DNA of 64,000 nucleotides from Octopus vulgaris (lineage: Eukaryota): NCBI GenBank assembly GCA_951406725.2, contig OX597814.1:68324001-68388000 (forward strand), in the 5' to 3' direction. The notes beneath the pieces were generated by a model. It worked only from the letters and a program-made list of their open reading frames with translations. It did no database searches and was not told where the DNA came from. Shown here piece after piece: positions 12,697 to 34,407 of the stretch (positions are counted from its first letter, which is position 1; each line of letters starts with the position of its first letter). Made by a program: the position numbers and the translations under genes.

Positions 12697-13007
12697 TAAA
12701 AAATTTTAAAATTATGTCATTTTAAGGAAAGGAAAAAAATTTTTCCAATATTCTCCAGACATTTTGACACAAATATATATATTTTTTAACATTTAAGCCT
12801 TCTGTCGTTTTTTCACACTTTACTATTTTCTTATATATATATATATATATATATATATAGCCTTTTTCTATTTGCAATATGCATTTTCGTTGATTTTTCA
12901 TATTTTACCCTTACATTTCCACGTGTATCTTATATTTCTTTTCGTAACATATTTCTACTATATATATATATATATATATATATATATCAGTATTTGCAAA
13001 GGCTTCT

Positions 13008-13138
13008 CTTTGTAAATACTGATAGGGCACAGAAAGTGTGTCAATAGCCAGATGGAGACGATGCTCTCCTGGGCTACAACCTACAGTAGCATCCACCCTT
13101 AGTAGTTAGTCACATTTAGTTGGCAAATATACTTCACA
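13008..13138 (+). repeat. Structured repeat 'X', 3' part (direct repeat of 15331-15433 and 34150-34258)
   Basis: Shared sequence ctttg(t/c)aaatactgatagggcacagaaagtgtgtcaatagccag...ctcctgggcta...gcaaatatacttcaca. Confidence 0.85.
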
Positions 13139-13390
13139 TTGTCGTGCAGCTACTGTTTATACCTTTTTACACTTTTTCGAGATCAGTGACTTTTCGTCAC
13201 TGGAAAAAGGTAGTGATTTTTACCTCTTTCGGGAGAATTTTTGATTTTGGATTCTACGTTTTTTTGTTGCTGCTACTGAGTGAGGTCGTTTTCATCCGTG
13301 TTTTCTGTTGATTTTGAACTGTTGTTTTTGTGAACTGTTTCTTTTGTGTCAGTTATTTTCCCCTGTTAACTGAAATTTTTTCTTGCCTTT

Positions 13391-15230
13391 GTGACGCTGA
13401 TCCAGAAGGACCCAAGCAAGGGAGATAACATTAGTAACTATAGGCCCATAACTCTGCTTAATGTAGAGTTAAAGATTTTGGCCAAGGTGTTAGCAAAAAG
13501 GTTGACGGCTGTCGTGGAGAAGCTTGGTGGGAAGGCCCAGACTTGTGCAATACCAGACAGGTCGATCCAGGACAATCTTCATCTCCTCCCCAACACCTTA
13601 GAGAGGGTAGGTAAAAGGATGGGCATTGGTCCACTTAGACCAAAGTAAAGCATTCGACAGGGTAGACCACCGGTACCTGGGGGCTGTCCTCAAAGCGGCT
13701 GGGATAGGCCCTGGCTTTCGCAGGTGGAGCTCCGCTATGTACGGCGGCATCAAGTCCACCGTCCAGATAAACGGTTACCCAACGGAGCCGTTTTCGATCA
13801 AGCGGTCTGTTCGTGAAGGATGTCCCCTGTCTCCGATTATGTATGTTCTGTCACTGGAGCCATTGCTGTGGTGGCTGGAGACGTTAGGCGGGCAACCATA
13901 TTGAGATTGGATACGGTAAGTTCACTTCTGCTTATGCGGATGACGTCACACTCATCGTGTCTAAAGAAGCACAACTACCTCATGTAAAAGATGCTCTCCG
14001 AAGATACGAAGCGATGGCAGGAGCAAAGGTTAACAAGAACAAGTCCATTGGTTTGCGCCTTGGCACCTGGAGGAACAAGCCGATATCATCCAGTGTCGTC
14101 GGACACTGGACAGATGATCCTGTTAAGTTGCTTGGAGTTTGGTTTGGTTCAGACTCCCAAACAGAGAAGAATTGGAGCGAGGTACTGGATAAGGTGGAGG
14201 CCACAGTACGGAAGGTCCGGAAGGTCTCTGTCCTTGAAGGGTAGAGCGGAGGTGGTGCAGGTGTTTATAGCATATGTAATCACCTGCCGCCTGTCCGTTG
14301 TGCCTTGCTCCAATTTTTGGCTAAACAAGCTGGTACGACTCCTCTTCCGCATTTTGTGGAGACGGGGAAAGCCACTTGTGAGGCGCTCCGTATGCTGCCA
14401 AGAACCACTAAAGGGTGCTTGGGGATGCCCTGGCCAATGATGCGCAGACATGCGTTGAGGCTGAGACATCTCTGGTGTGGAGTCCGTTGGCGGAGGAGTT
14501 CTTGCCACGACCGACTTCTCTGGAGAGATTTAAACCCGATTTCATTAAAAGACGTAAGCTGACTTTATGGCAGAAGGAGTGCCGTCAGGCACTCTGGCTG
14601 ATCCACAAGACGGGCAAAGCCGGCTGCGGGAATACCGTTCAGCATGCTTTTGTAACATGTCGGGAGCTATCTAGCTTGATAAGTTACGTAGAACGTGTTG
14701 TCGCACCTGGGACGAGTACAGCTGTCGGGTGGATCTATAATAAAGATGATACCGCCACCTGGACTCACAAAGGAAGGTAAGGCTTGTTTTTACTCTACGG
14801 TTGCAGTACTAAAAGAGTGTGTATGGAGGACCAGAATGGAAGGTTTTGTGACAGGTTCCTTCATCTCCGGCCCCGGTTTGCTATATTACTTCAGATGCCA
14901 TCTGAAGAGCAACATTGAGTTGGAAAGGAAGACCCTGCCACCGAGTGATTACGAAAAACGAGGGAAGGATGTGGGGCCTTATAGGCTGCCGGGTTCAAAT
15001 TTTTAACCTGCATTTTCCCTTTTTCTTTTTAGCTTATGTTATGTTCTCTAGTTTTATTTTTAAAAACACAAAAGTTCTCGTTGTAAAGGCAAAAGTAAGC
15101 CAAGGTTTCGTTTATGTCATATTACAATTAAATTTTTAAAAGTCTCATTCGAACACATGTAACATTTTTGTATTTGTCTTGTTATGTCCTTTTCTATGTT
15201 AGATCTCATGATCATAATAAAGATTTTATC
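13391..15230 (+). mobile_element. Internally deleted L1/Tx1-like LINE (RT region and 3' UTR)
   Basis: NYRPITLLN, LDQSKAFDRVDH, SVREGCPLSP and AYADD. Homologous to 30226-32443 and ending in AATAAAGAT. Confidence 0.9.
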
Positions 15231-15246
15231 GAAGACCAGTGATTGT

Positions 15247-15294
15247 CGTGCGCTGACGATGACAGGTAAATACTCAGAAACCCAGGTCCGTGCG
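15247..15294 (+). ncRNA. Type I hammerhead ribozyme at the start of repeat X
   Basis: cgtgcg-CTGACGA-tga(...)tca-GAAA-cc(ca)g-GTC-cgtgcg. Canonical core with a GUC triplet. Confidence 0.75.
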
Positions 15295-32099: not shown

Positions 32100-32567
32100 T
32101 CATCGAGGAAAGGAAAATCAGCTGCTGGGATTTATAGACTGCCGGGTTCAAAATTGAAACTGGTGCCTTGCATTCCCTTTCACTGTACATAACTGTTTAA
32201 AATAAAGAAATAATAAAAAAAAGAAAACATACGCACTAAAAGTTCTCGTGATAAAGGCAAAAGTAAGCCAAGGTTTCGTTTCAAGGCAAAGTAAGCCAAG
32301 TTTTCCTACAAGTTACATAAAATTTTATTTTTGTAATTTTTATAATTTCATTCGAACTCGCATAGCATTTTTGTAATTGTTTTGTCCTGTAATGTCCCAA
32401 TTCTATGTTAGATCACTTGATCATAATAAAGATAAATCCAATCGAAAATCGCTTTTTTTTTGGTGTCGGAATTTTTTATTGCGTTATTGGTGTGTCGAGG
32501 TTGTGAGTTCGAGTTCGTTGGTGGAGGCCGTTGAGACGTGGTGAATTTTTTTGGAGATGTTTCGAAA

Positions 32568-33870
32568 ATGCAAGCCCAGACGTATGCGGAAGCAGCAGAC
32601 AGAGGCTTGACTGCGAGTGAACTAGAGCTGGAAGAAGTGGTAGTCGAGAAAGAGACTTTGGAAAAATATTTCGACGGCTTGAAGTAGGAAGATGATTGTG
32701 TAAGAGTCACACCGTCTGAAGAAGAAGCAAAAGAAGCGGAGAAACGTATGATAACATACAGAACGTGGAGCGTGGCTTCAAAGAAAATAGAAGTGGCAGA
32801 GACGGAGGAAATAGAGAAATGTCTGCAGGGAATTGAGGGAGAACCTACCTTTTACAAACGAGGAAGAAAATACGCTACAGTGGTCGTCCATTTTAAAAAT
32901 GAAGATGAAGCAAGAAGGAATGTCACGAAAATTTTGAAATCTGAAAGATGGACATTATTACCAAGTTACTGCGGAAAGAGTGCAGTAAGAATAAGAATCG
33001 GTAGGATTTCGCCGGAGCTTAACATGGAAAGGATTCTAGCGGCAGTGGTTTTCAACTGCAAGGAAAGCGTTGAGGTGTTGAAGGTGGAAAGGTCAACAGA
33101 AGTAAAGTGGTGGGGTTATGCGGTGCAGGCATTGGTCCACATTACTATGCCAGACCTCTATAACATCCCGGAGGAGTTGGTGTTCCCCGACGAGACACGT
33201 CTTAGAGTCGTGGTGGAGGAGAGACCCCCAGTGTGTTACAAATGCAAAATAAGAGGCCACATGAAGGATGTGTGTCCGCTGGGAGAAGTGCAGGAGAAAC
33301 GAAGGAGTGGAAAGATACGTGTGTAGAGGAGGAAATCATCACTACAGATAATGTGGAAAGTGGTGAAGAGTTGGAGAAAGAAAATAGAAAGAGAACGCGG
33401 GTGAAATCACCACCCAAAGAACAAAAAGAGGAAGAAAAAAGCGAAAAACAAGATTACTGACGAGAGGGAAGACCGAACGTGCGAAGGGAGTGATGCAGAA
33501 GCAAAAGCAAGTGAACCAGCAAAATTAACTGCAGAGGAAGAATGGGACAGAAGAATGGAAGAGCAGTTGAAAGGTCTATAAGAGAAGAGGAAGACCCAAA
33601 GGAAAGAAACACAGAGTGGTAATGTTATATTTCAAGGACAAAAATACGGAAAAGATGTTGGCAGGTAGGAAAAGTTTAATTAGAGTAAAGTTGAACCCAG
33701 AAATATATGATGACCAGTGGAAGGCGGTAATCGTGGAGAGAGAGAGATTGGAGAAAATGAGAGATGATTATAGTGTATGTGAATGATTATATGTACGTTA
33801 TGACACTTTGCCAGCTATTGTGGATCAGGAGAGGTTGATAGAATACCTGACAGATGAACGACCAGTATAG
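32568..33870 (+). pseudogene. L1/Tx1-like ORF1 (gag-like, CCHC zinc knuckle) lying downstream of ORF2
   Basis: ATG at 32568 (MQAQTYAEAA) is in frame with the 32748 ORF after one stop. It contains CYKCKIRGHMKDVC (CX2CX4HX4C) and an E/K-rich tail. Confidence 0.7.
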
Positions 33871-34071
33871 CAGAACTGTGTTTTAAATGAAGCTGCGAGT
33901 TATGGGGGGCTCGTAAGCCGTTCCATCTAATCCATTATAAATATTCATTTCACTTCATATTTTTCAATTTTTTTTATTATATGTACCCCATGTCCTGATT
34001 GTGATGTCCCCTCTTAATTCGGGCCTTAGTGCCTATAATAAAGATAAATCCAATCGAAAACCGGTGATTAC

Positions 34072-34116
34072 CGTACGTTGACGAGAGGCAAAAACCTCGA
34101 AACTATAGCCTGTATG
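34072..34116 (+). ncRNA. Degenerate hammerhead at the start of repeat X (second copy)
   Basis: cgtacg-TTGACGA-gagg(caaaaa)cctc-GAAA-ctatag-CC-tgtatg. It is positionally homologous to 15247-15294 and has two core changes. Confidence 0.55.
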
Positions 34117-34317
34117 TATCACTTAGGTTTTCGAGAGGGGATGACCTCCCTTTGCGAATATTAGAAGGCACAGAAAATGTGTCTAAAGCCAGCTGGAGAC
34201 GATGATCTCCTGGGGCTAAAAGCTTCAGTAACACCCACCCCCAGTGGCTAGCCACATTGAGATGGCTAGTACACTTTATGTTATCATTGGATATGTTATA
34301 CAAAATTCATATTTTAT

Positions 34318-34407
34318 ATCTCTGAAGAGCAGAAGCGTTGTCTATAAATGCTTATCGATATAGGATTTCATAATAGGGACAACTCATCTGTGAAACGATC
34401 GTAAGAT
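34318..34407 (+). ncRNA. Type I hammerhead ribozyme with an extended stem II
   Basis: atct-CTGAAGA-gcaga...(gttgtc/gacaac)...tctgt-GAAA-cgatcg-TA-agat. Canonical core, palindromic stem III and a GUA triplet. Confidence 0.75.

Follow-up and report, generated by a model that had tools for sequence, protein, structure and literature searches.

L1/Tx1-like LINEs of Octopus vulgaris adjoin hammerhead-bearing retrozymes at a likely snRNA-type transcription start

Two loci in a stretch of 64,000 nucleotides from Octopus vulgaris (assembly GCA_951406725.2, contig OX597814.1, positions 68,324,001 to 68,388,000 of the forward strand; hereafter the window) raise the question of why a long interspersed nuclear element (LINE) should end directly against a repeat carrying a hammerhead ribozyme. 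An earlier note on this DNA offered two answers: that a Tx1-like LINE lineage targets ribozyme-bearing repeats, or that LINE and ribozyme together form one chimeric, ribozyme-bounded retroelement. The first has held up, through empty sites, target site duplications (TSDs), tandem stacking and independent insertions. The repeat, to judge from its sequence, is a separate retrozyme of about 355 bp, of the kind without long terminal repeats (non-LTR) and mostly free of LINEs, and the LINE insertion site in it is likely to be the transcription start of a promoter of the small nuclear RNA (snRNA) type.

At locus 1 (12988-15435; Table 1), AATAAAGAT occurs at 15216 and the repeat starts with ATCGAAGACC at 15228; the hammerhead follows, with its core CTGACGA at 15253, GAAAC-CCAG-GTC at 15277-15288 and a predicted cut after 15288, all inside a long stem that starts at +1. 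At locus 2 (27650-34450), AATAAAGAT occurs at 34037, the repeat starts at 34053 and the core, TTGACGA, at 34078; the cleavage triplet is altered to GCC (34099-34110) and, with U at position 3 besides, the hammerhead in this copy (34078-34110) is likely inactive. The earlier note was right in placing a hammerhead shortly after a LINE end at both loci, canonical at the first (15253-15288) and decayed at the second, and in describing a small inverted 5' junction beside (TA)n, a 14-bp pair with copies at 12988 and 13008. Other parts of its account need amending. A LINE-type end does adjoin the hammerhead repeat at locus 2, but this end belongs to element C, a relative with ORF1 as its only open reading frame (ORF), and the homologous LINE stops at 32430. 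The repeat copy upstream of the LINE at locus 1 is present, but it is not an LTR; it reaches to about 13212 and is the remaining part of one and the same monomer of the retrozyme: 13001-13212 comprises the 3' domain of one monomer of the X1 family continuing into the promoter region of the next, about 30 bp adjoining the insertion site and most of the 5' TSD copy being missing. Within it, 13001-13085 is 91% identical to 15324-15409, and 13005-13134 is 79% identical to 34147-34276. The ORF of a Penelope-like element (PLE) before the LINE at locus 2 and the second hammerhead after it are also present (28733; 34322), but as unrelated neighbours. No retrozyme lies in sense within 1.5 kb of the ORF end in 19 other copies of this PLE (0/19), which was rejected as the parent of X, other PLE families lying outside the search. 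The second-hammerhead family has 776 candidates in the genome, and in 0 of 19 other copies does a LINE end or X lie directly upstream; it was rejected as part of the system.

As for the LINE sequences themselves, 13389-15227 at locus 1 is 80-84% identical to 30222-32066 and was placed in the tree; local alignment of 13213-13388 with the 5' termini of copies from families B and A outscored every one of 200 shuffles. At locus 2, 28734-32430 is 96-97% identical to the 5.5-kb full-length copies of family B, and 32423-32451 matches 34035-34063 at 28 of 29 positions, as a duplicated target site.

The host repeat has the features of a non-LTR retrozyme, namely a short non-coding monomer with a type I hammerhead, both dispersed and in tandem. 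Monomers measure about 355-362 bp (about 357 at locus L018, 361-362 at L270), and a tandem X2 array on C4 has 355-bp spacing. It is independent of the LINE, since most of its copies are LINE-free with empty sites. X1 has 2038 first-look candidates in the 2.8-Gb genome, and 28 of the 29 other top copies lack a LINE upstream and display the empty site, which the earlier note had proposed to look for; the exact X2 site pattern occurs 509 times, and among the first 30 occurrences 2 are LINE-filled and 28 unfilled. The hammerhead was detected with a custom strict descriptor and by covariation instead of Rfam, a scan of the window with the latter calling no hammerhead at E<=1; a member of a sister family matched Hammerhead_1 at E 0.002, under the gathering score. 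In an alignment of 25 copies, 93.7% of cells are paired over the hammerhead and the long extension of stem I that begins at the LINE insertion site, and 9 pairs are changed on both sides. None of 500 shuffles reaches this score, in a test inflated by relatedness and on a structure drawn from the same sequences, and slid registers pair 26-41%. Single-sequence folding gave z-scores of -0.67 at locus 1 (weak) and -3.73 at locus 2 (strong). Loop III is short and palindromic throughout, as is expected of dimeric hammerheads. The retrozymes themselves are likely spread by PLEs.

The association was assessed quantitatively through 120 LINE 3' ends chosen by LINE sequence alone, with flanks classed by BLAST (families A, B and C: the top 30 of 40-44 scored matches each; family D: 30 exact matches, the first of 62). 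The set includes the copies in the window itself, and certain loci lie next to each other in one cluster, so that not all 120 ends are independent. This tabulation, which the earlier note had called for, places 59 ends at retrozymes, 16 at stacked LINEs, four at U2 genes and three at a TATA-box repeat, Q. Retrozymes account for 18 of 30 flanks in family B (with 4 U2, 5 stacked LINEs and 3 other), 19 of 30 in C (0 U2, 5 stacked, 6 other) and 18 of 30 in D (3 Q, 6 stacked, 3 other); in family A, 4 of 30 are retrozyme X and 26 other, among which about 7 further hammerhead-like families were recognised by eye, 3 of them passing the strict descriptor. The text of PMC4494074 sets target preference at over 20% of flanks within a single type of repeat; families B, C and D stand far above this, and A yields 4/30 for X alone and about 11/30 for any hammerhead-like repeat. 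The strict descriptor is satisfied in 35 of 90 LINE 3' flanks (A 5/30, B 16/30, C 14/30), as against 1/2698 flank controls and 1/2700 shuffles; the adjacency of LINE and hammerhead is not due to chance. On the 5' side, inspection by eye placed 30/30 B-type and 27/30 C-type flanks at a retrozyme, U2 or a stacked LINE.

TSDs of 14-21 bp are present at 24 of 27 hand-picked on-target loci having both ends, with exactly 17 bp in 12; the typical duplication of about 17 bp spans -3 to +14 of the host repeat. All on-target insertions seen lie in the sense orientation of the host, and the LINE and its ORF1-only relative stack head to tail at the same site. LINEs that are 99.4-100% identical over 3 kb sit in hosts 72-97% alike or in U2 genes, and LINE and host identities are scarcely correlated (Mantel rho 0.12, p 0.25, 17 loci). 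Because near-identical LINEs are thus found in divergent hosts, the insertions are recent and independent. At L321 and L088 (C1:216.76 Mb), LINEs are stacked behind the 3' end of another element, together with a further, unclassified target motif. A single contig from a sequencing run coded as a different organism, compared with L134, leads from a LINE 3' end through X3-type target letters into a LINE 5' end, which hints that the system exists in a related species.

By its sequence, the LINE is an L1-group non-LTR retrotransposon (L1/Tx1-like). The 5.5-kb full-length element has an ORF1 carrying a CCHC knuckle, upstream of an ORF2 with N-terminal APE endonuclease, reverse transcriptase (RT) and C-terminal zinc motif (Exo_endo_phos, RVT_1 and zf-RVT by Pfam), which is open across 1134 codons in L133 and L129 and whose best PDB match is human L1 ORF2p (E 7e-63; R2, 1e-25). 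Some copies are 5'-truncated; TSDs are found on and off target, and no poly(A) is left by integration. The homologue hits include one at 69% to a protein named from Argonauta hians but no named Tx1 reference, and membership of the Tx1 clade is putative, the endonuclease hairpin tip NDGS, which resembles RDGH of Tx1L, being a weak lead only. Endonuclease identity is 99% among B copies in X2, X3 and U2, and 88% between B and D2. The hairpin loop WTWSNNDGS is almost invariant: 11 of 12 loci examined reach the loop and 10 of these 11 match, the other having S for G. The 1.6-kb ORF1-only family (window 32453-34042, L091-L120) has a conserved ORF1, distinct from that of the autonomous copies, its own subfamilies and the same targeting; with dN/dS (nonsynonymous to synonymous substitution ratio) values of 0.14-0.16 in two diverged pairs and 0.46 in a close pair, this ORF1 is, on sequence comparison, under purifying selection.

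What the targets share is suggested by a motif. The insertion site lies 56-61 bp downstream of ATCAGTG, as in the U1, U2, U4 and U5 genes. A scan for this motif at -53..-64, one mismatch allowed, found it at 14/14 U1, 28/28 unfilled U2 and 18/20 U5 loci, and at 4/6 gene-like and 0/9 pseudogene-like U4 loci, for a background of 38/2800 at random positions. From its position, ATCAGTG would be the proximal sequence element (PSE) of this species. It is absent from U6 (0/12 loci), and a U6-type RNA polymerase III (Pol III) promoter was dropped on that account. Among the non-tandem 5' flanks of X, X2, X3 and Z, the LINE site could be located in 40 and not in 6 others; the PSE stands upstream of it in 37 of those 40, and likewise in 20/20 filled X2-type sites. 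The interval of -56 to -61 is kept by X, Z and U2 and also by three families of A type. In Y the motif at -60 departs by two mismatches, and Q has only a TATA box. A TATA-like box at -25..-34 occurs in 14/14 U1, 19/28 U2, 16/20 U5 and 13/28 X2 loci (background 236/3000) and, by eye, in only 2 of 11 off-target sites; a targeting model based on TBP only is neither supported nor contradicted. In this genome, the snRNA genes of RNA polymerase II (Pol II; U1, U2, U5; L153-166, L194-213, L465-494) have ATCAGTG near -58 and often a TATA-like box near -30.

Some LINEs have entered snRNA genes themselves. The +1 of U2 is adjoined by six LINE ends, five of family B and one C-like, with a 17-bp TSD from -3 to +14 and the full U2 restored downstream; 2 of the best 30 U2 genes are filled, and one U2 gene holds two stacked LINEs. 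At the three resolved junctions of U2-inserted B copies (L137, L139, L140; C23:43.31 Mb; C3:20.81-20.83 Mb), a 14-nt X3 retrozyme leader, beginning exactly at the predicted +1 of the X3 site, stands between the U2 TSD and the LINE. On the simplest reading the donor RNA began at the X3 +1, and the leader gives the direction of the target switch, from retrozyme to U2; L345 may be a second case of a retrozyme leader. A template switch from retrozyme or U2 RNA onto LINE RNA was rejected, the host being colinear on both sides with a TSD. The +1 of U1 is adjoined by one D-type LINE end, inside a U1 cluster. No LINE was found beside 20 U5, 15 U4 or the best 14 U1 loci, and no match placed a LINE end at the U6 +1. 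Subfamily D3 targets Q, a tandem repeat of about 600 bp, some 30 bp downstream of a TATA box. The Q repeat (L279-L284; C1:60.97 Mb, C1:77.37 Mb, C2:59.41-59.45 Mb) matched no family in Rfam; its TATA box is clean, and its predicted start is followed by a short ATG-stop.

How, then, is the site chosen? We lean, by a modest degree of belief, towards promoter capture at snRNA-type start sites, the choice being made mainly by promoter position together with a loose sequence preference. Integration of the LINE would proceed through target-primed reverse transcription, the target being cut at -3 and +14, and the host promoter would transcribe +1 to +14 of the host and then the LINE. The polymerase would be Pol II rather than Pol III because the LINE starts with a T run and has 14 runs of at least five T inside, which would stop the latter. 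The site itself would be set mainly by its position relative to the promoter, whether through contact with the SNAPc/TBP complex or through open DNA at an active start, assisted by the loose sequence preference. More speculatively, read-through into the downstream hammerhead might trim the LINE RNA and leave target sequence at its 3' end. Capture of a promoter is the likely payoff irrespective of whether promoter or sequence alone guides the LINE. A fuller version can be put forward tentatively, with rather less than even confidence: a Pol II snRNA-type complex (SNAPc/TBP) would steer the LINE to the exact start of small RNAs, with retrozymes as a safe promoter pool, spill to U1, U2 and the TATA repeat, an RNA perhaps finished by the hammerhead, and a three-tier chain of PLE, retrozyme, and LINE with its ORF1-only satellite.

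A number of observations weigh against steering by the promoter. A first comparison gave PSE enrichment (37/40 against 14/29, p=5e-5) and was set aside because it is confounded by mixed families; the matched test within X2, with the PSE in 20/20 filled and 23/28 unfilled sites, is not significant (p=0.066). With one mismatch allowed, the PSE is absent from all 11 off-target sites checked; such sites belong chiefly to the old family A, and have TSDs and the same loose A-pyrimidine start as those on target. One LINE 5' junction (L354) has no PSE upstream, and Q has no PSE and no hammerhead that could be seen. Family A, the oldest, is far less strict, at least 19 of its 30 flanks not being hammerhead repeats; the random 3' flanks that the earlier note named as telling against a link hold in part, and for this family only. 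U1, U2 and X share YYGG at +9..+12, and therefore sequence alone may explain the switches among them. The retrozyme families may be homologous, in which case their constant spacing does not amount to several independent observations. The insertion in U1 is a single event with its 5' junction not resolved, and a single switch may underlie all B insertions in U2. The constancy of the endonuclease loop is weak evidence, since the hairpin loop, according to the text of PMC1950540, does not act as a modular code for specificity. The idea of hammerhead trimming is weakened by the non-canonical cores of many hosts that carry a LINE.

Several of these points would be natural under targeting of the Tx1 type by sequence, a possible though doubtful alternative in which the endonuclease reads a loose motif and host sequence at the 3' end of the LINE RNA pairs with the primer. 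Each subfamily would return to its donor's target, and the coincidence with +1 would arise since a promoterless LINE founds a lineage only just behind a promoter. This mode is known for Tx1-clade elements (text of PMC4494074). The 3' ends of the subfamilies co-vary with target family, and two off-target D2 ends begin ATAC, as does the U1 site; the shared YYGG, the off-target sites with TSDs and without PSE, and the matched PSE test also count in its favour. However, the targets differ widely in sequence (X, Y, Z, U1, U2, Q), and the X consensus is not matched by the sites in Y, Z and Q. The 15-bp site consensus of family B has 6158 genomic matches, most of them unused: 7 of the first 30 are retrozymes and 0 of the other 23 are insertion sites, as against 34/37 among on-target B and D1 ends. 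Furthermore, family B reaches X2, X3 and U2 with the near-identical endonuclease described above, and where the lineage has switched to unrelated genes of low copy number, twice to U2 and once to U1, it has landed on +1 each time.

It is quite improbable that the LINE and its retrozyme make up one composite retroelement bounded by ribozymes. In that case Penelope machinery would copy both together from a single, possibly circular RNA, and the many loci would stem from few insertions. Many filled loci do have a PLE-type inverted 5' copy, but inverted copies are as common in unfilled repeats, with an inverted upstream copy in 16/30 X2 loci. The order B-C-X2 is common to window locus 2 and L248, which also have the same X2 3' end, at 94%; L129, however, has the reverse order C-B, and the window copy of element C is equally near L248 (95.4%) and L129 (95.5%). 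LINE and host identities are decoupled, the U1, U2 and Q hosts have no ribozyme, and the chimeric element of the earlier note is not supported, given the LINE-free sites (28/29 other X1, 28/30 X2) and near-identical LINEs in unrelated hosts, U2 included. At L247 (C10:101.16 Mb), an inverted X3 piece precedes a 5'-truncated LINE that ends after 8 target bases. This arrangement speaks for a composite, and L247 is possibly a LINE and retrozyme RNA inserted by PLE machinery; co-mobilisation of LINE and host is at most a minor route. That the two window loci reflect one old segmental duplication, or chance adjacency of repeats that are indeed abundant (X1 with its candidates above), can practically be dismissed, given different LINE families (80-84% identity), repeats 73% alike and a junction recurring with TSDs on many chromosomes.

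Promoter capture at snRNA-type starts may be compared with known systems. R2 in 28S ribosomal DNA borrows the host promoter, and its RNA carries flanking target sequence; it has a restriction-like endonuclease and its own 5' ribozyme of hepatitis delta virus type. In the octopus, by contrast, the ribozyme is part of the host repeat and is situated on the 3' side of the LINE. Among Tx1-clade LINEs, the text of PMC4494074 describes Tx1L (into the piggyBac-type Tx1D), Tx1-Mar, Tx1-8_Crp and Tx1-9_AMi as target-specific, and the targets named there are DNA transposons, LTR elements, microsatellites and RNA genes (U2, U5, 5S), with no retrozyme or hammerhead repeat. Tx1L-type LINEs resemble the octopus LINE as APE-RT elements with a fixed site in another mobile element, but the octopus lineage uses dissimilar targets sharing a promoter position. 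Keno and Utopia, U2-specific non-LTR elements, insert at U2 nucleotide 38/39, with a 3' flank from 39 (text of PMC4640811). Like them the octopus LINE inserts in U2, sometimes in tandem, and Keno also has an APE endonuclease; in contrast, the octopus site is the U2 +1, with a TSD from -3 to +14, U2 is a minor target and U1 is also used. TRE5-A of Dictyostelium is one of the L1-group APE elements, and TBP, Brf1 and Bdp1 are bound by its ORF1 protein. It inserts 44-54 bp upstream in opposite orientation, and yeast Ty3 at the start site, both at Pol III (TFIIIB/C) genes (text of PMC5911963). In these the site is set by distance from a promoter complex, as it would be in the octopus if tethering takes place there; unlike them, the octopus LINE inserts in sense at the predicted +1 of promoters that look like those of Pol II snRNA genes. 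The host repeat shares 355-362-bp monomers, a type I hammerhead, dispersed and tandem copies and PLE-type marks with the animal non-LTR retrozymes of PMC7229834 and 10.64898/2026.07.22.740005, as described in their text, and a snRNA-type promoter motif with newt satellite 2, which has a Pol II promoter of that type (as cited in the text of PMC2220036).

The searched text of the two retrozyme papers contains no Tx1 or LINE targeting of retrozymes, and the main text of the 2026 Octopus vulgaris repeat annotation (PMC13282606) lacks the terms hammerhead, retrozyme and snRNA. Retrozymes as a LINE target class were not found in the literature searched, Repbase and supplements being outside that search; retrozymes as the main LINE target, together with a site at the predicted snRNA-type start, would thus be new. 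Even under sequence targeting alone, they would be a target class absent from that literature. The target choice of Tx1-type LINEs is usually ascribed to an endonuclease reading DNA sequence, and here one young lineage with a near-identical endonuclease uses at least six unlike targets sharing a predicted transcription-start position. If a promoter complex does steer it, this would be an animal Pol II counterpart of TRE5-A and Ty3, with naturally intact copies. The insertions would, in addition, give the likely transcription start of animal retrozymes with single-base precision, which is left open in the text of PMC7229834 and 10.64898/2026.07.22.740005.

Table 1. Positions in the window of the features that make up the two loci.
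Feature	Position	Strand	Remarks
14-bp inverted pair, copies at 12988 and 13008	12988..13021	.	beside (TA)n; truncated 5' edge of retrozyme copy; mark of host-repeat insertion in the manner of PLEs
Host retrozyme X1, upstream side of target	13001..13212	+	colinear with empty sites
ATCAGTGA, predicted PSE of snRNA-type promoter	13182..13189	+	motif at -57 to -61 in U1, U2, U4, U5 genes; putative function
LINE family A 5' untranslated region (UTR)	13213..13388	+	limits approximate; joined to mid-ORF2 through internal deletion
LINE family A: disrupted ORF2 from RT to C terminus, then 3' UTR	13389..15227	+	ends AATAAAGATTTT, no poly(A)
Host retrozyme X1 from predicted +1	15228..15435	+	type I hammerhead core 15253-15288
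PLE fragment fused to truncated LINE	27650..28733	+	start approximate; unrelated to system
LINE family B, 5'-truncated at ORF2 start, frameshifted	28734..32430	+	APE endonuclease, RT, zf-RVT by Pfam
5' copy of TSD from element C insertion at same site	32431..32452	+	alignment
Element C, 1.6-kb ORF1-only LINE relative, CCHC zinc knuckle	32453..34042	+	ends AATAAA
Host retrozyme X2 from predicted +1	34053..34280	+	hammerhead core 34078-34110
Second hammerhead, core from 34322	34283..34450	+	separate repeat family, bystander

The remainder of the window contains further mobile elements. Just upstream of locus 1 lies a PLE (9020-12831) with RT and GIY-YIG on the + strand at 9492-12475; its terminal copy, inverted and 525 bp long, is 98% identical. 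Another PLE fragment occupies 6641-7972 on the - strand. Downstream of locus 2, a Tc1/mariner element (34814-36430) has inverted repeats of about 220 bp and a transposase frame of 361 codons (Pfam DDE_3, HTH_Tnp_Tc3_2). A tRNA gene with a GAA anticodon, for Phe, is found at 37337-37409 (Rfam, 64 bits), and a 300-bp inverted repeat of 90% identity (40891-42130), with a long hairpin at 41410-41660, lies within a degraded LINE region.

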